Source of the DNA: Vermamoeba vermiformis
Lineage: Eukaryota
DNA: 64,000 nt
Direction of reading: 5' to 3'
NCBI GenBank assembly: GCA_045837725.1
Contig: JBEWZL010000239.1
Coordinates: 434,001 to 498,000 of the forward strand
Positions 14,190 to 58,979 of this stretch are shown piece after piece. How positions within the stretch are numbered: position 1 is the first letter of the stretch; the number at the start of each line of letters is the position of its first letter. Below the pieces are notes generated by a model. The model did not search any database and was not told the DNA's origin. It saw only the letters and a list, made by a program, of their open reading frames with translations. The translations under genes and the position numbers were made by a program.

Positions 14190-15914
14190 ATGGACACTAT
14201 CCCTCAAGATGTCTGGCCGAGGATCGCCGAGTTTATGGATGCCAAAACTAAACGAATTATGCGCTTGGCAAGCACAGCGTGGTTTAATTTGATTAAATAT
14301 AACGACTTCACGTTATATTTTACGAAACTAGAAGACTTGCCGACTATTGTGGACCGATTATCAAAATATTCTTGGCCGATCAAGCTGACATTTGCCCAAC
14401 ACAAATTCACTGTTGCTCCAGAGCTAGTTATGCCCCTGAAAAATCTAACGAATTTACTTGCACTTGATGCGATTTCAGCAGCGTGTTGCGAGAGAGGTCC
14501 TCCCACACGATCCGAGTGGATGCAGCTGTCAACGCTCACGAACATGGAATGCTGGAGATTTATGCCAGGAATTGCACCTTGCGATCTTTATAAGAGCTTT
14601 AAGAAGTTGAAAGAATGGGAGTACTCTGGTGCTGATTATGATGAAGACGAGTCATCAGGACAAGATATACTGGCACTATTACCCGACTTGCATTCGCTCA
14701 GTTATCACGCCAATAGTGACACGTGGCCATTTGCACTCTTACAGAACCCCGAACAACTCACAGAACTGTCTATGAGTGTTGCAGCAACATTCAAGGAGAC
14801 TCAGATGTGGTCCCGTTTAACGAATTTAAAAACGCTAGCTTGCAACGAACACTTTGGAAATAATCACATCGATACCAAGTACCTGACTGCATTGGAGAAT
14901 TGTGCGTTTTCGGTCGGATCTATGCCATCCTTAGAAACAAACACCAACTTGACCCAATTAATATTGAAATGCAAGGAATGGCCCCAAACTAGAGTGGAAT
15001 CAATATCTAATTTAAGAAAGCTTCATCACCTTCACCTTCACTACGACCAACCGCTCCATCTGCTTTCGTTTAGTTTTTTGGCGGAACTTTCCAAGCTGAC
15101 GGAATTGCACCTTCACACCGATCAGATCCCCGATGAATTTCATTTTAAAGAAGAAATGTATCAAAATCTGCCGTCCACCTTGAAAATTCTCAACACTACA
15201 GAGACTTTGGATCTCGCTCAATTAACGCATCTGGTCAATTTGGAGCACCTTCGTGTGGAAACCGCTCCTATTCATACGGAATACTTTTCATACCTTTCCA
15301 ACTTGACTAAGCTTTCGACGTACTGGAACGAGGAGGACAAGGACGAGTACGACCTCAGATCCATAGAACACTTGACAAAACTTGAAGATCTTTCGGTCAA
15401 TGGAATGACGCAAGCCAGGATAATGATAAACATAGCAAAGCTAGGCGCGTTGAAATCCTTAAGATGGAATCGTTTGGATTGTACGAAGGAAACAATAGAT
15501 GGAATTAAAAAACTTTCGAATCTGGAACTGCTGGCACTGACACAAGCTGAAGAACCCATAGAAAGCTACGAATTTTTGTCATATTTGACAAAATTGACGT
15601 CTCTGATGATAAGCGACCGAACTGTTAAAGACGAATCTCTTTGGATCAACCTCACACACCTGACGAACCTGGCAGCTCTGACATTAGAAGAAGTTGGTAT
15701 AACTGACGAAAGATTGATGCAACTAGCCGTGTTAAGACACATTACGAAGCTAGAGATTATCAAGGCGGATTCTACTTTCACCGGATGTCACTTAACGGCC
15801 CTGTCTTCGCTAAAGCGACTCGAGATTATTGGCCGTGGTCTTCAATTAAAATACAAAAAAGAAGATCTAATGAACAGCTTACCCTATCTGTCCTACTATT
15901 CAGAGTGGGTGTAG
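14190..15914 (+). CDS. F-box/leucine-rich repeat protein (intronless)
   Basis: N-terminal MDTIPQDVWPRIAEFM...MRLASTAW is F-box-like, followed by many LxxLTNLxxL repeats over 574 aa. Confidence 0.85.
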   Translation: MDTIPQDVWPRIAEFMDAKTKRIMRLASTAWFNLIKYNDFTLYFTKLEDLPTIVDRLSKYSWPIKLTFAQHKFTVAPELVMPLKNLTNLLALDAISAACCERGPPTRSEWMQLSTLTNMECWRFMPGIAPCDLYKSFKKLKEWEYSGADYDEDESSGQDILALLPDLHSLSYHANSDTWPFALLQNPEQLTELSMSVAATFKETQMWSRLTNLKTLACNEHFGNNHIDTKYLTALENCAFSVGSMPSLETNTNLTQLILKCKEWPQTRVESISNLRKLHHLHLHYDQPLHLLSFSFLAELSKLTELHLHTDQIPDEFHFKEEMYQNLPSTLKILNTTETLDLAQLTHLVNLEHLRVETAPIHTEYFSYLSNLTKLSTYWNEEDKDEYDLRSIEHLTKLEDLSVNGMTQARIMINIAKLGALKSLRWNRLDCTKETIDGIKKLSNLELLALTQAEEPIESYEFLSYLTKLTSLMISDRTVKDESLWINLTHLTNLAALTLEEVGITDERLMQLAVLRHITKLEIIKADSTFTGCHLTALSSLKRLEIIGRGLQLKYKKEDLMNSLPYLSYYSEWV

Positions 15915-32088: not shown

Positions 32089-34982
32089 TTAATACAAATC
32101 TTCGTTCAGTAGCTTTCTAGAGACAATTACGCGCATAATTTCGTTAGTTCCTTCGAGGATCTGGTGCACTCTCAAATCTCTCAAGTATCGCTCAATAGGA
32201 TACTCCTTCAAGTAACCGTAGCCTCCTAATAATTGAAGTGCATTATTGACTACATCGAAGCACTTATCAGTGGCAAATTGCTTCGCCATAGCGGCAGCAG
32301 ATGTAGCAGCCGGATCTTTCGCATCCAACAACGAAGCAGCTTGACGAACGAGCAATCTGCTAGCGTGGAGATTAGTTGCCATATCAGCGAGACGGAATTG
32401 AAGCGCTTGTTGTTCTGCGAGGACTTTGCCGAACTGTTTGCGAACCAAGACGTGATCCTTGGCGTACTTGAGGCACGCGTAAGCTCCTCCAACACTGCAA
32501 GCGGCTATATAAATACAATATGATCGTTAGAATAGTATTAGACGGAATGTTATTCTATTTTAGGTTCGAGTTGCGGATGTGATGTTCGTTGTTTTGTACC
32601 GGATGTACTTACCAATATTAATACGACCGCCATCGAGACCAGCCATAGCGAATTTGAATCCTTCACCTTCTTTGCCCAACAAGTTAGCAGCAGGGACCTT
32701 GCAGTCTTCAAAGATAACTGCACGAGTAGGTTGCGAGTTCCAACCGAGCTAGATCCGACAACAATTAGCACTCGATCATACACTAATCCTTAAATAGCAC
32801 TAATATAACGTACCTTGTGCTCTTTCTTGCCAAAGCTCAAGCCAGGAGTACCCTTCTCGATAATGAATGCTGAAATACCCTTCGGTGCTACAAATCACAA
32901 AACGTTAGTCTTTAATCATTGTATATAGGGTACTAATTATTAATATACTGCTTAGTGTAGCTATTTATAATTGAATGTTTTGTCAGTACGCGATCACGTG
33001 ACTGAAAAATAAAATTGATAAAATTATTTGTGGAGACTTACAATCGTCACCAGTACGAGCCATAACGACGTAAACATCGCTATCACCGCCACCACTAATG
33101 AAGGCCTTAGATCCGTTGAGAATATAGTAATCGCCTTGTTTAACTGCTTTCGTGCGCAACGAAGCTGCATCCGATCCGCTACCGGGCTCAGTCAAACAGT
33201 AAGAAGCCAAATGCTATTAAACATATTAATACTGAGCATGCGTATATGATCCTACATACCTCCATAGTGCACAATTTGGGCAAGAATTTTTGGCGTTGTT
33301 CTTCGTTTCCGTATCGATCAATCATACCAGCAACCATGCTAATAAGTACGGTTAATACTACGTATTTGAGGAGACTATGATACGGTGCTTACTTGTGGAT
33401 TGTAATGTAGGCGGTAGTAGATGTGCAAGCTGAGGATAAAGCCTCAAAAATAATCGTCGCATCCAAACGTCCGAGACCACTGCCACCAACATCGTCTTTT
33501 ACGTAGATGCCGCCAAAACCGAGTGCTGCCGCTTCTTTCAATACATCAACTATAAAAAAAGAACATTAGAAAACTGCTTAAGACCCACATCCAGTACGCG
33601 GAAAAAATAAATAATTCTACAGTCGGTAAATTAGCGAGCAAAAAGAGTGATTGCGTAAAGTGCCAACTGATGTCATTCCGAAGAGCGATTTAGTACGAAG
33701 TATTTAGTTTTCAATCGATGCAACAGTGCGATCCTGTCGGTCAAACCTCATTGGATGGCTAATGCACGATCTTACGAATTTAGTTTCGTTTCGAGGCAGC
33801 ACTTTTACTTTAGCACTCTTGTTAATTGCATATACGCTAATATTTGGCTTTTAAACTCAGTTTGAAACGCACGCGGTCTATTTTGGTTTGGAATGCAGTA
33901 TTGAATTCGCATTGAAAAGGTATTATAAAATTAAATTTCTTTAGTAGAATGCATAAAATAATATTAATTCCGCTAACATATCCGCCTCTTCAAGCCAAAT
34001 TAACAATAGAAAATAATAAAATAATTTTCAAAAAAATGATGAGCGAATTAAGCTTGCCGACATATTATTGGTTTGAAAGCCTAAAAAGCAAAAAGGAGTG
34101 ATGAACTATAGTGTGTTATTGCTTAAGTGGCATTGAGAATTATTCTTCAATCGATCCGGCCGCACTGTCTTAGGTGACCAAACTGATCTCTGAATTACGC
34201 TCAAATTTTGTGCAAGCAATTTCAAATATGGTTTATATAGAGTCCGGATTATATTTGTATAGGAACTGATAAAGGATTTGAATTGGTATTGCGGACTGGC
34301 CAGTCACATCCAAGTTTCAATTCTCCTCATCACTCCAAATCTAGTGATATCATTCGCAAGAATATGAGAAGATATTATTATGCCCCTTGGTATAAATGTG
34401 GGAGTAAAACAGATCAATTAACGATATTTTCGCAGATCGACAAAGCGCCAACTATTCTCAGAGAATTTTTTGAGGATTTTCCGCGCGCGTACCAATAATT
34501 TGTTTTAAATGCCAATAAAACGCTTTGTTTCTTATATTATAGTTAATAGAAAGGCTTACCAGGGAATTTTTCGTTCTGATCCCAGTCAGCAGCGAAAGGC
34601 AACATCTTTTCACGAGCAAAATTGAAAGCAATGTCTTGAATTTGTCGTTGTTCCTCAGTCAAGCCGATAGAAGCTATATTTAAAGGGTTAATATACATTG
34701 GCTCATCGACAGAAGGACGAACAAAATAGATCCGTTAGAAAATTCAAAAAATATTCTAAAAATGCTTAAACATTGATTTTATTTTTATTTACTCGTGCAT
34801 TATTCAATTTATATTATGTACTATTTTTACTTACGATCAAATGAGCTGGCATTTCTTTTCGCTGTGATCGTCGTGGATTTTGCAACATTGAGGACAATAT
34901 TAGTCTTTTTGCTTGCGTTGGTTGAGAATACGCTTCTTGATGAGCGTGCAATTGAAGGAATAATATTGACAAGTCGTTGCAT
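32089..34982 (-). CDS. ACAD8: Isobutyryl-CoA dehydrogenase, mitochondrial
   Basis: Presequence [61 protein letters not shown]...[12 protein letters not shown]. Confidence 0.93.
33643..33820 (-). ncRNA. Candidate structured RNA 2 in the ACAD8 intron (family unknown)
   Basis: Closing stems AAGAGTG/CACTCTT and GTAAAAGTGCT/GGCACTTTAC; hairpins ACGAA/TTCGT, CGACAG/CTGTTG, CGATT/AATCG; a C(UUCG)G tetraloop. Confidence 0.55.
34095..34336 (-). ncRNA. Candidate structured RNA 1 in the ACAD8 intron (family unknown)
   Basis: 10-bp closing stem GGAGTGATGA/TCATCACTCC, inner stem GAGAATT/AATTCTC, and several G-U-containing hairpins that pair better on the host strand; followed by TTTTT. Confidence 0.55.
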
Positions 34983-54000: not shown

Positions 54001-56037
54001 CTGAGCAAGCCTCGGCCCCTGCACTAGCCGTGGCCCCTGCTGCCCCTGCAGTCGCTACCACTGTTGCTGGAATCACTGGCCCAATCCCTGCTGCTTCACA
54101 GATCCGATTGCCGCAACTGTCAGCTGAACCACCACAGAACAAGATCAATTTGATTTGCAACGCGTTGCGAGATGTGTTCCAAACACTCAACCCGAACAAG
54201 TACTTGTTGCCTATTTTGACCACTTACGTCACCAAGAACCCTCAAGAAATTGAAGCGGCGCTCAAGTTGGTCCAAGGCTTGAAGAGTACGTTATAGCAAT
54301 AATAGTTATTTTACAGTATTGACGATGAGCAGATGCTGGAAATGAAGGCAACTCCGATGCATTGACAGCTGAAAAGGCCTTGAAGTATTTGATCTTTTTG
54401 GTCGACGTGAACAAGTTGTACGACATTGCCCTCGGCATGTACGACTTTGACTTGGTGATGATGGTCGCGCAAAAGTCACAGAAGGATCCTAAAGAATATA
54501 TCCCGTTCTTGACCAAGCTCAAGAGCCAGGAAGTCAACTACCAGCGCTACAACATTGACATGACACTGGGTCGTTATGACAAGGCCTTGGGACACTTGAG
54601 CAAGGCTGGTCCTGACTACTTCAACGAGTGCGTGGAGTTGATGAAGAAATACAAATTGTACAGCAAGGCCCTTGATATCTTCAGCGACAACTCTACCAAC
54701 AACGACAACCCTCAAATGAAAGTTATTATGGACGCTTATGGCGAGAACTTGTTCGAAGAACGAAAGCTCGAAGAAGCCGCTAACAGTACGTAATTGCAAT
54801 AAGGCTCGTTGTTAGTGAAAAATATTTAATGTTTCGTGTGACAGTTTGGGCTAGCAACAAGAACTGGCAGCGTGCACTTGACGCCTACAAAGATATTCCT
54901 GATTGGCGCAATGCCCTCGTGATGGCCAAGCGACTTCAAAAGACAGCTGAAGAGATCACCGCACTGCTCAAAGACATTGCGTACAAGTACACTGAGGTCT
55001 ACAAATGGGACGACGCTGCCATTCTGTACGAGAAAGTCGGTGCTATTGAAGACGCTGTTAACTCTTACGTCTCTGGCCACTCTTGGGAAGACGCCGTGCG
55101 CTTGGTAAGTCTGACACTTTGACATCTTGACACGTGTCAAACTAAGATCTAACCCATCAATTAACAGAGCGTTCTTGACGATCACGAAGAGTGGATTGAA
55201 GAGAAGGTCAAGCCTGCTTTGTTGTTGACAGCTGAACGATTGAAGGAAGGTCTTGAGAAGTCCTTGAAAAAGATCACAAAGCGCTACAACAGATTGATCG
55301 AGCTCCGATACGAAAAGATGACTCAGCCTCGCGTTGAAGAAGATCCGACCAACCTTGAAGAGAGCATGTCTGTCTACTCGTCTGAAGCCTCTAGCATGGC
55401 CTCGGGCTACTCTTCCATTTCATCAACCTCTAGCCGTCTGTCTACAACCTCGTCTCAAATGTCACGCGGATCCAAGTACGTCATCCCCAAACCCTTTTAT
55501 TATTGCTCGTACTAACGATTAGTATGTGTAGCCGAAGCAACAGATCCAAGAACAGTGCGCGCAAACAGAACAAGAAGGCTGCCCGTAAGAAAGTCAGCGG
55601 TCGTCGTGGCACACCTCACGAAGAAGAATACATTTTGCAACGCATTGGCGAACTGTTCCCGACCGAGAAGTTCCAAAGTACGTGCCACTGTCTCTATATA
55701 TTCCTGTTTTTACCTCAATACTAATTCTTGTAACCCCACAGAGGAGGTCGCTAACACCTTGAAGAACTTGGTCACATTCGGCTACAGAACTGAAGCCAAG
55801 GCCTTGCAACAGGCCATGACAACGTTTTTGACAGCTGTCCAGGCCACGCTGCCCCTGTTGAACACTCCGAGTCCCAAGACTCCGACGCAGTTGCACGAAG
55901 AAGAAGAGAAACTCGCACAACAGCTCCGCGAAGGCAAATTGACGACTGAAGCGCAATTGATCAATAAGTTGATTGCTCCTGTGAATATTCCCAAGTTTAA
56001 TGTTGAAAAAGTTGATTGGCGCGTTGATTACATTTAA
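51039..56037 (+). CDS. ELP1: Elongator complex protein 1
   Basis: [55 protein letters not shown]; basic C-terminal region. Confidence 0.97.
52446..52540 (+). ncRNA. Intronic box C/D snoRNA, SNORD15/snR13-like
   Basis: Perfect 10-bp stem TTGGTCATTA/TAATGACCAA; TGATGA at 52458-52463; CTGA at 52524-52527. GGCATTTG and GCTACCTTAA are complementary to adjacent parts of LSU UUAAGGUAGCCAAAUGCC. Confidence 0.85.
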
Positions 56038-56134: not shown

Positions 56135-58979
56135 TTATTTGTTGAATATCGAGTCAATCTTGTTATCAAGTTCGCTAATCTTTTTGACTGAAGCTTTCAA
56201 CTTCTCTTCAGCAACTTTGAGCTTTTGTTGTTCTTTAGATACGAATTGTGTGTAAGGTGCCAAGTTGTCTTGAATTCTGCGCACTCCTCGGTCCAAATCT
56301 GAACTGAAATGTGTTTGCAAAGTTTCGCGCATTCTCTTGCGCAGATTTTCAATCTCTTCGCGGAATTTTTTCTGTAGTATAACATAATTAGTTGATGACG
56401 CGAATATACTACGAAAAAAAGGTAAAAAAGCCAGATCAGAATAGGTACGAGGCATGTACAAATCATCAACAAGCAGCAAACCAACGCCGCTTATGATAAA
56501 GAGTTCTCATCATGCAAAAGACTAATGTCGTCCTTAATATCAATCACGGTACGCGTACCTTCAAGCTAGTTCGTTTGTACGGCAGAATGGCCAAACCAGT
56601 CGCAGCGATGGCACCAGCACCAACAATGCCTGTAATGTCCAACAAAGCCCAAGAAGTGAGAGCACCCTAAACAAAAAGATGGTAAGCGGCTTAATACCAG
56701 GGAGGGAAGTAAAAAAATAAAAAAAGAATTTGCGTGCACCGGGAGTCGAACCCGGGGCCTTGGCTTGGGAAGCCAAGATGTTACCGTTACACCATGCACG
56801 CGTGCGAATCATCGGTTTTGGGATCCTGCGTGACCAGGACCGATACGATTAGAGTAAAAAGTAGATTGTAAATAACCTGTGAAGCCTGGTAGCTCATTGT
56901 CAAAAAGTAACCTACAAGGCCGACGGCGCCGAGTTCCATGGCAGCTGTTTGATACACGGCTGCGGCCACTTGAGCTGTCAACTTCTTGACTTGCTTTTCT
57001 TTATCGAAGTCTTCGACGACACGCTTCGAGCCTTGGCCCATGCCTACTCGTGTATTAGTATGACTATTGAAGTGTGGGTGGCATTGCTATTACCTTGCAA
57101 CAAAGCAGATCTGTCGTAGTGGAATTGCGTGTTGATCTTGCCGACAACTTTGTCCGAGTCAAGTTGTTGCAGCTTATGAGTCACATGCTCCATAATGCGG
57201 CTCCAGAACTTGCCGTGTCGCTCCAAGTTCCAATCGATCAAATCTGAGACGTATTTCTCGACTTCAGAGCTGTCATGCGGTTAGTTTACACGTGCCTTTA
57301 GTAACCAATTGCGAGCTTACCTGAAGTTACCAACGACTTCCTTTTCAAATTCTCGCTTCACTTCATCGCCTCTCATCAAAGAGAAGATTCGTGTGATGCC
57401 AATCTTTTCGTCGAACCAAGCCTCGCCTCGTTCAGACATGCGCAACAGGACGTTATCAACGTGTTCTTGGTGGTACTTGAAATCGTAGTTCATGTCTTTC
57501 TTGAAGTCAGTCACGGTCTCTTCAATGTTCTTCAAGGTCTCCACGTCGCCTTCAATGGTCGCCACACGTGCTGCAACATCAGCGTTGTATCGCTTGACAA
57601 TGTAAGTCGCAACACCGAGCGGGTTCTTCAATTTCAAAATGGTTCTCTTCTCGGGGTCGAGAGTGTTCAAAATGTATGATTCAAGATCGCCAAATCGAGA
57701 AATTTGCCACATAGGATTTTCAGCCAACTTCTTGATACGTTCCTGTTTGACACGTGTCAGAACATTATGACATCTTAAGATTTACTTACATTAGCGTCCT
57801 TAATGTCAGCAGTGGCCTTCTTAGCACGAAGCGCCATCTTGCCGCTGACGGGGAAAATTTCTGGCTCAAAGTCAAAGAGCTGGCGTGACTGTTCGCGAAC
57901 AAAGTTTTTGACCTCTTCAAGTTGAGACTCTTCTTCGAACAAATCGATTTTTGAGAGCACAATAATCAACTTCTTCTTATACTCTTTGACTTTTTCCATA
58001 AACTGTCGTTCACTCTCGGTGAAAGCACGATCGGAACTGGTGACAAACAAGACCAAGTCTGATCGAGGCACAAAATGCTGTGTAATTTCTTGATGGCCCT
58101 TGACGACAGCGTTGGTGCCCGGAGTATCTACAAGACTGATTTGTTTGAGCCAGTCTACTGGGACATTGACAAAAACTTTGTCTTCGCCGTCCTCATCTTG
58201 GTACTTCTCGTTCACTTTGAAGGACTCGCCGTATCGCAGAATATTGATCTTAGATGTTGTAGGTGTCACGCCCTCTTGCAACCACTTGTTGCCGAGCAAA
58301 GCATTCAAAAACGAACTGAGCAAATGTTAGCGATTTGATGACGTCAACAAGGTACGTCAAATTTTTTTGTAATTGAACGAACCTTTTGCCGCTGTTGAAT
58401 TCACCGACTACGACGAGTAAAAATAAATCTTCTAATTGAATAATGCTTCGTTTGACAGTTTCAATGTCTTCTTTGGTCGCGCCAATTTCTTTGAGTGTAA
58501 TGACCAAGTCAGTCAGAAAATCTTTTTCTTCGCGGAGAACTGCTTCTTGCTTAGGCGTTAATGATTGCTTTCCTAATATGTTTTGGTCGGCTGGGACCTA
58601 CGATATTAAAGTCAGATATTTAGTCATGAAAATTTTTTGAAATTCATTTTCCTTTCAAAAAAATCTTAATGAGGAAAACTACTATAAGTAGGGTGCGTTA
58701 TATTTATGATCCTATTTATTTGTTATAAATAAATTATTTCGAAAATTATTGCGCATTAATGAAACTCACTTGATCTGCATAGCTTCTCTGGGCATTAAAA
58801 GCCTTTACTGAGTTCAATGATGTGATATTCGTAACCTTTTGGACCTTATTACGCGAGTTTAACGCAGTTGTAATAGGTCTGGTTTGTTCTCTGAACATAG
58901 AACCTGGATGTCGCTTCTGCAATCCAGAGGTCCATCTGTTTGCAGATCGCAACGATGATCGTAGCAAAGAGGTAGCCAT
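56135..58979 (-). CDS. FZL/bacterial dynamin-like GTPase with a predicted mitochondrial presequence
   Basis: G1 VGEFNSGKS, G2 GVTPTT, G3 DTPG, G4 SKID; FVPRSDLVLFV; two hydrophobic segments and a C-terminal coiled coil; N-terminus MATSLLRSSLRSANRW. Confidence 0.88.
56430..56518 (-). ncRNA. Intronic box C/D snoRNA candidate, target not recognised
   Basis: ATGATGA (56513-56507), internal hairpin TAAGCGGC/GCTGCTTG, C' TGATGA, D CTGA (56439-56436), inside a ~188-nt intron. Confidence 0.7.
56731..56801 (-). tRNA. tRNA-Gly(CCC), intron-nested
   Basis: GCGTGCA/TGCACGC acceptor stem, TTGGC-TTCCCAA-GCCAA anticodon arm, GGTTCGACTCC T arm, downstream oligo-T. Confidence 0.97.

Follow-up and report, generated by a model that had tools for sequence, protein, structure and literature searches.

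Two related elements in a long intron of an ACAD8-like gene of Vermamoeba vermiformis, the upstream one a candidate small structured RNA

What does an intron of 1010 nucleotides (nt) contain, and why is it there, in a gene whose two neighbouring introns measure 46 and 54 nt? The question is raised by a 64,000-nt stretch of the Vermamoeba vermiformis genome (contig JBEWZL010000239.1, positions 434,001 to 498,000 of the forward strand; hereafter the window, with positions counted from its first letter), in which a gene for an acyl-CoA dehydrogenase is interrupted in this way. An earlier note, made from the letters alone, had proposed that the intron holds a diverged tandem pair of structured elements, called here unit B (upstream) and unit A (downstream), from an undescribed non-coding RNA family. 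The account that we prefer, with a confidence slightly above even, is that the upstream copy is a genuine, selected small structured RNA of host sense born in or from the intron, that unit A is its old paralogue and that the family is undescribed. We regard the upstream copy as a credible candidate and the finding as a good lead, not a discovery, with support for one of the two copies only.

The intron itself is delimited by RNA. A spliced contig of 1098 nt from RNA run X5, letter-identical to the exons of the window, joins position 33549 to 34560 and skips 1010 nt, in agreement with the earlier description of the only intron of about 1 kb. Its borders read CT..AC on the plus strand, which is GT..AG on the minus strand, and the two short introns of the same gene are given by further joins in this contig, from 33213 to 33260 and from 33338 to 33393. 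The flanking open reading frames (ORFs) translate on the minus strand to an acyl-CoA dehydrogenase of the isobutyryl-CoA-dehydrogenase-like (ACAD8-like) type. Within the intron we distinguish the following:

33550-34559, minus strand: host intron of the ACAD8-like gene (spliced X5 contig; flanking ORF translations)
34087-34270, minus strand: upstream copy, unit B as delimited by homology, about 180 nt (alignment to A, z 6.6; nhmmer, 34267-34087)
33637-33820, minus strand: downstream copy, unit A, 184 nt including its 3' motif (homology to B; inverted repeat I1; 0 reads)

The two units are related beyond chance. Their local alignment scored 195, against 115.5 +/- 15.6 for dinucleotide shuffles, and neither any of the 1000 shuffles nor any of 974 random pieces of the window reached that score. 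The likeness is collinear and confined to 33820-33637 of A and 34265-34087 of B (0 of 500 shuffles as good), where a MAFFT alignment finds identical letters at 89 of 164 aligned positions (54%), and the flanks of the two units align no better than shuffles do (z 0.5, 1.7 and -0.9). Plain BLAST sees only 9-10-mers in common between A and B, and an nhmmer profile of the two cores recovers B; neither this profile (next best E 1.7) nor blastn-short returned a third copy in the 64 kb window. The diverged tandem pair thus stands, with two corrections to its limits. Because the homology covers only 34265-34087 of B, the 242-nt unit B that had been drawn from 34336 is not the homologous unit, and the GAGTG that was taken as a common start lies at two positions that are not homologous. 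A gap-rich global alignment hinted at tandem duplication of a whole segment of about 445 nt, which we do not claim because the flanks alone stay at the level of shuffles. Cores that are alike between flanks that are not would fit either constraint on both copies or a duplication of the core only, and at 54% identity unit A appears, on this comparison, to be an old paralogue of B. Both copies are about 180 nt long and AT-rich, and the terminal inverted repeat I1 of unit A is imperfect (20 nt, 75% complementary).

Evidence that one of the copies is expressed comes from raw RNA reads of runs X21-X23, which carry the same species label and were placed on the window at a likeness of at least 85%. 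These reads stem from a diverged relative: none is at least 99% alike, and in the exon at 33407-33530 19 of 124 positions differ, and a single codon phase accounts for 18 of these (of 42 positions in that phase). Small shares of the stretch in runs X4 and X6-X20 form no part of this evidence. Thirty of the 41 placed X21 reads lie on a single segment of the upstream copy:

34098-34205, minus strand: expressed, conserved core covered by the relative's reads (depth about 20-22 in X21 and 5.5-6.9 in X23; 9 of 108 positions differ)

Summed depth in the two bins of this segment was 19.6 and 21.6 in X21, where exons reach at most 1.5, and 5.5 and 6.9 in X23, where they reach at most 4.0; the rest of the intron received no reads at this likeness, as would be expected, at such divergence, of intron sequence free of constraint. 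The nine differing positions are 34116, 34119, 34126, 34130, 34141, 34160, 34170, 34195 and 34199, and four of these changes cluster in the 3' tail of the segment. At the variant sites the X21 letters are near-uniform (26 of 26 at 34126, 30 of 30 at both 34141 and 34160, 25 of 27 at 34170), which suggests one locus as the source. One end of the RNA is sharp: past 34205, 15 X21 reads and 5 X23 reads continue for 20 unlike letters (median) and then stop, and the X21 letters that follow are what we take to be the start of an Illumina adapter, so that this common stop points to the end of a discrete molecule. The other end is ragged, with about 26 of about 30 reads reaching 34126, 8 reaching 34116 and none reaching 34097. 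Together, these ends indicate an RNA of about 110-130 nt. The idea of an undescribed non-coding RNA is thereby supported for the upstream copy, whose core is conserved and gives a discrete short RNA in the relative, but not for unit A, on which no read of X21 or X23 was placed.

Two structural observations adjoin this mapping. Past 34205 the relative's letters resemble the reverse complement of 34253-34276, and a few joints of the 'opposite strands' kind link 34205 to 34230; on these two grounds, a segment of about 34203-34276, bounded by CAAAU/AUUUG, may be inverted between the two genomes. In a soil metagenome (run X3), a contig matches the window letter for letter over 33681-33968 and is unlike it from the junction 33968/33969 on, which indicates that a near-identical strain differs structurally in the spacer between the copies.

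The core of the upstream copy contains a fold that distinguishes the two strands:

34133-34202, minus strand: irregular 70-nt hairpin with a 14-nt loop (-19.2 kcal/mol; z -2.64)

Its arms, AUUC-AGA-GAUC-A-GUUUGGUC and GGCCGGAU-C-GAUU-GAA-GAAU, have a 3x3 purine loop (AGA/GAA) between them. On the minus strand the hairpin makes up 54% of the ensemble and 1 of 200 shuffles folds as well, whereas its plus-strand complement reaches only -10.2 kcal/mol (z +0.30), an asymmetry that arises from five G-U pairs. Five of the 70 hairpin positions differ in the relative and, when mapped by hand, none of the five breaks a pair, for which a rough chance estimate is about 0.02: the A>G change at 34195 turns an A-U pair into G-U, the G>A change at 34160 turns U-G into U-A, and the substitutions at 34199, 34170 and 34141 fall at unpaired positions. 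Read on the plus strand, both of the substitutions that keep a pair would give mismatches, and they therefore point to an RNA of host sense. The arms at 34194-34171 and 34159-34142 are invariant in the relative, and the second of them includes the word ATCGATTGAA that unit A also carries.

Copy A behaves differently. Its homologous GAUC...CGAUUGAA closes a helix too (GAUCG-UGCA with UGCA-U-CGAUU), with a longer, different, U4-like tip, but the fold shows no strand asymmetry (z -1.67 vs -1.56), and the sense-strand preference attributed to both units is therefore seen in the core hairpin of B and not in A. The earlier expectation of folding better than shuffles is divided along the same line, as whole A is unremarkable (z -1.23; 24 of 200 shuffles as good) and whole B moderate (z -2.81; 2 of 200). 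Within unit A, the region 33676-33790 (minus strand) also holds an internal direct repeat, D1, of the form GAAACUAAAU..UCGUA (33778-33801 and 33702-33725, 75%) and three ACUAAAU words similar to the branch-site words of this genome.

How such an RNA might be made and used can be sketched from these features. It would measure about 110-130 nt, with the hairpin at 34202-34133 as its core and the two arms, ATCGATTGAA included, as its constrained part. It may be made from the intron, either by being cut from the spliced intron and trimmed to the hairpin base, as intronic small nucleolar RNAs (snoRNAs) are, or by transcription within the intron; a sharp end about 10-25 nt before the closing stem and a ragged end at the base would fit trimming to a protected structure. 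Its role would probably be that of a hairpin bound by protein or of Dicer type, and not that of a guide RNA. Arms that are kept more than loop and flanks, together with a common word in the 3' arm, would fit a Dicer-type precursor, and the purine loop, together with the tip of copy A that resembles a kink-turn (k-turn), would fit a protein platform. Alongside the intron, the homology, the strand-specific fold and the conservation and expression in the relative, all of which were observed, we infer an origin of the relative's RNA in the orthologous intron. There is precedent for such a product within the window, other introns of which carry a transfer RNA (tRNA) and a C/D snoRNA on the host strand.

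Several points weigh against a selected RNA born from this intron. The libraries are unstranded, so that its strand rests on the folding and on two substitutions, and a different locus could be the source of the relative's reads. Exon depth is underestimated, since the reads on exons lie close to the 85% cut-off (11 of the 41 X21 reads are less than 90% alike), so that the excess over the host messenger RNA (mRNA) is uncertain; in X23 that excess is only about 1.5- to 3-fold. Run X5, which holds the identical spliced mRNA at a word depth of 13.3, has no contig on the intron, although contigs cannot prove absence. Unit A is without reads, the relative has unlike, perhaps inverted, sequence on the 5' side of 34205, and relatives of the element were absent from both of the pattern scans of metagenome contigs described below. 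A covariation test would need more than five substitutions, and the fold has moderate z-scores: -2.64 (hairpin) and -1.94 (34232-34105).

The motifs by which the pair had been recognized, ATCGATTGAA and ATCACTC(C)TTTTTGCT, occur in both units where they had been placed:

34146-34155, minus strand: ATCGATTGAA motif, copy in B, in the 3' arm of the hairpin (unchanged in the relative, with no difference at 34142-34159)
33710-33719, minus strand: ATCGATTGAA motif, copy in A (sequence match)
34087-34102, minus strand: ATCACTCCTTTTTGCT, 3'-end motif of B, including a run of five T (T5) (copy of ATCACTC(C)TTTTTGCT; the relative's reads end at or before 34098)
33637-33651, minus strand: ATCACTCTTTTTGCT, 3'-end motif of A (copy of ATCACTC(C)TTTTTGCT; direct repeat D2)
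34327-34336, minus strand: 5' arm of the 10-base-pair (bp) terminal stem proposed for B (inverted repeat I12; partner 34095-34104; chance level and outside the homologous unit)

What had been built on the unit ends fared less well. The perfect 10-bp stem said to close B is at chance level, given that the window contains 60 perfect 10-bp inverted pairs and that 117 of 300 shuffles of the intron contain at least one; terminal stems were thus ruled out as boundaries of B. A T5 run does follow each copy, but six runs of at least five T lie on the intron's host strand, so the T5 runs are weak evidence and cannot bear the weight that was put on them. The common word D7 (GACAUCAGUU in A, GAGAUCAGUU in B) is not collinear. 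The pattern GATC..CGATTGAA occurs three times in the window against 0.57 expected, and its third match, at 55180-55244 on the plus strand, shows no further likeness to A or B. Among metagenome contigs, a scan with the two invariant blocks of B and a variable gap gave 0 matches, and a scan with ATCGATTGAA plus the 3' motif gave 11 loci, which we attribute to chance because none resembles A or B outside the pattern.

That the elements belong to no known family, as had been supposed, agrees with Rfam 15, which places nothing in the intron at gathering score; in the window as a whole, only tRNA-Gly and the Z15/snR60 C/D snoRNA reach theirs, both outside the intron. Sub-threshold matches of the intron at E<=10 are CRISPR-DR38 (17.9 bits of 44), SNORD21 (16.1 of 63), snoR8a (15.9 of 37), GNAS-AS1_3 (12 of 42), sR33 (11.7 of 37) and U4 (10.3 of 46). 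Taken alone, unit A matches U4 (E 4.2) and two C/D families at about 16 bits, and unit B has no relevant Rfam match and no U4 at E<=10. The U4 model (RF00015) aligns 33779-33697 of unit A to its 5' part, below threshold, and this stretch includes one further feature:

33731-33756, minus strand: small hairpin in A like the U4 k-turn 5' stem-loop, AUCC-AAU-GA-GG-UUUGA-CC-GA-ca-GGAU (a lead only)

As in the model consensus, AAU-GA-GG is followed by a 5-nt loop and CC-GA, and then by UUGC..AUUGAAAACU; the alignment takes in the stretch UUGC..UUGAAAACUA. The differences are nonetheless considerable. A 2-nt 'ca' insertion lies on the opposite strand, where that of a canonical k-turn is continuous; beyond about position 88 the model's 3' half finds no match, with 31 and 24 positions skipped; UUUUUG follows both copies without the purine flanks of an Sm site, and the relative's reads fall short of it; and the k-turn motif is absent from unit B. 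Presumably, if the conserved U6 sequence is as we take it to be, the U4/U6 helices could form in neither copy. We therefore treat the U4 likeness of unit A as a possible lead and not as membership.

This likeness bears on the competing explanation that survives best, unlikely as we hold it to be: both copies would be decayed pseudogenes of a small RNA gene elsewhere, possibly one like a small nuclear RNA (snRNA), and the relative's reads would come from that master gene. The reads match for 108 nt and then turn into unlike sequence (the share running on unlike is 0.73 in X21 and 0.67 in X23), as copies of a gene elsewhere might do. Unit A's weak match to the 5' part of U4, the by-eye match of both copies to part of the U4 consensus stretch UUGAAAACUAuucCcaAuaCcC, the mere 54% likeness of A and B, and the lack of an intron contig in X5 point the same way. 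Against this, five hairpin differences that all keep the fold would not be looked for in a copy under decay, A and B have remained similar in their cores but not in their flanks, no Rfam family fits and, as weak evidence, an abundant master gene, should this organism have one, left no contig of X5 or X3 placed on the element.

Decidedly doubtful, in our view, is a more ambitious reading in which the elements represent a new protist class of snRNA, with the invariant hairpin GAUC...GAUUGAA as a platform that recruits an RNA-binding protein, of the Snu13/L7Ae type or some other. In this model the tandem purine-purine loop and the U4-type k-turn tip of copy A would do the recruiting. If true, the new class would amount to a lineage-specific ribonucleoprotein (RNP) housed in, and perhaps co-regulated with, a gene of valine catabolism.

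We place no greater trust in a role confined to the pre-mRNA, by which the fold-backs would act in cis to shorten or regulate a long intron and the short RNA would be a stable remnant of the excised intron. The intron is about 20 times as long as its neighbours, the element lies on the host strand, and downstream ends of which only 8 of about 30 reach 34116 could be those of a decaying remnant. In X21, however, depth is well above that of the exons; the large closing stems are at chance level or imperfect and would not loop out much of the intron; and what is conserved is a local hairpin, with both splice sites far away.

Quite improbable is the landing of two short mobile elements in the intron, remnants of a miniature inverted-repeat transposable element (MITE) or something like a short interspersed nuclear element, with the reads coming from other copies. 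Both units have terminal inverted repeats (I1 and I12) and share a length of about 180 nt and AT-richness, and the presence of MITEs in other introns is a claim of the earlier note only. Yet the inverted repeats are weak or at chance level, that of B lying outside the homologous unit; both known copies are in this one intron, with no other in the 64 kb; no target-site duplication was seen by eye; and at each variant site the relative's reads hardly vary, as reads of one locus would. Least probable of all is an independent pair of genes of the RNA polymerase III (Pol III) type, a sub-case of our preferred account with another biogenesis, in which each gene would be ended by its T5 run, inside the conserved 3' motif: introns here can house Pol III genes, as is seen from an intronic tRNA-Gly with a T7 run behind it, and a TATA-like TATATAAA stands at 34245-34238, upstream of the mapped RNA end, but no read of the relative reaches the T-run (all end at or before 34098, with depth 0 at or below 34097), T-runs of this length are common on the strand, TATATAAA is not kept in copy A, and the likeness to A and B boxes, for which neither ARAGORN nor the Rfam tRNA model gave a match at the element, is by eye only and lies farther from the mapped 5' end than such boxes do in Pol III genes.

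We thus return to a small structured RNA from the upstream copy and to its setting. For free-living protists that are poorly sampled, almost no non-coding RNAs have been mapped, and the best named protein relatives here are 60-75% identical: protein search gave 70-75% for the dehydrogenase, with alpha-proteobacteria and, at 70%, the amoeba Arcella, and 60-65% for the neighbouring DYRK-like kinase. Near-identical proteins were found only among JGI and Logan records, and an Atlas search returned bacterial acyl-CoA dehydrogenase clusters only. With 92% of its letters kept beside a neighbouring exon in which 43% of third codon positions have changed, the intron element makes a strong functional-RNA candidate. 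If it serves as a Dicer substrate or an RNP scaffold, it would add a lineage-specific class of RNA; if it is a decayed copy, it would point to an unknown master gene.

Other observations concern the surroundings. The C/D snoRNA of the snR60/Z15 family lies at 749-832 on the minus strand (55 bits against a gathering score of 41), in an intron of about 210 nt that starts with GTAAGT and ends with ACAG. The tRNA-Gly(CCC) lies at 56731-56801 on the minus strand, followed by its T7 run, in what appears to be an intron-like stretch that shares its strand with the coding sequence around it, which indicates that Pol III genes inside introns occur in this genome. A 96-nt 'tRNA-Stop (tta)' called by ARAGORN at 15089-15184 on the minus strand is unmatched by the Rfam tRNA model, looks like ordinary sequence and is probably a false call. 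Identical spliced mRNA occurs in four RNA-like runs that bear another organism's label (X5, X6, X9 and X11, of which X5 was examined in alignment); cultures or samples under other labels thus seem to contain the organism.

How, then, does the element compare with small RNAs already described? By eye, likenesses could be drawn to a telomerase template, RNase P/MRP, 7SK, Y and vault RNAs, U2, U3, U11, U6atac and 5.8S; none of them is backed by Rfam at E<=10, and we do not count them as evidence. Class I RNAs of dictyostelids are 42-65 nt long, and the element is about 180 nt. In two published reports, Class I RNAs are small RNAs of an amoeboid protist lineage in which a stem joins the two ends and a T run lies downstream (PMC7919456, PMC3188802), and these traits are shared. 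These reports also describe an 11-nt motif with 8-mers of the CCTTACAG type, which the element lacks, an upstream sequence element of Dictyostelium (DUSE), [AT]CCCA[AT]AA, about 60 nt upstream (PMC7919456, PMC3188802), and a length of 50 to 60 bp (PMC3188802). Candidate DUSE words, TCCCACA at 68 nt before the start first proposed for B and ACCAAAA at 69 nt before that of A, are not evidence, because the two starts are not homologous and the words do not align between the copies.

An H/ACA RNA would have a hairpin with a conserved guide pocket and an ACA 3 nt from its 3' end, some 14-16 nt past the pocket. The geometry is roughly of this kind, with an internal loop, an 8-bp lower stem and ACACAC, an ACA lying 16-18 nt after the internal loop. 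In the relative, by contrast, the loop has changed at two of seven positions on its 3' side (34130 and 34126) while the upper stem is kept, and one ACA is lost (34116); the mapped RNA has no H box together with a second hairpin. Because the would-be pocket is not conserved, a guide role of this kind is disfavoured. Box C/D RNAs differ in having boxes in register, a C box near the 5' end and a D box (CUGA) near the 3' end joined by a terminal stem, which the element does not: GUGAUGA, a form of the C box (RUGAUGA), occurs only within the chance inverted repeat at 34327-34336, no CUGA was seen by eye near a 3' end on the host strand, and the Rfam C/D matches stay at about 16 bits.

With precursors of microRNAs and mirtrons the element shares two hairpin-bearing copies in one intron, a common 10-nt stretch in the 3' arm, and arms that are nearly invariant in the relative while loop and flanks change more; it differs in that the hairpin is irregular, with 3x3 and 1x1 internal loops, and weak for its 70 nt at -19.2 kcal/mol, and in that the RNA species is one of about 110-130 nt. 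With intronic snoRNAs it shares its setting and form as a host-sense, short and discrete RNA inside the intron of a protein-coding gene, more abundant than the intron itself would be.

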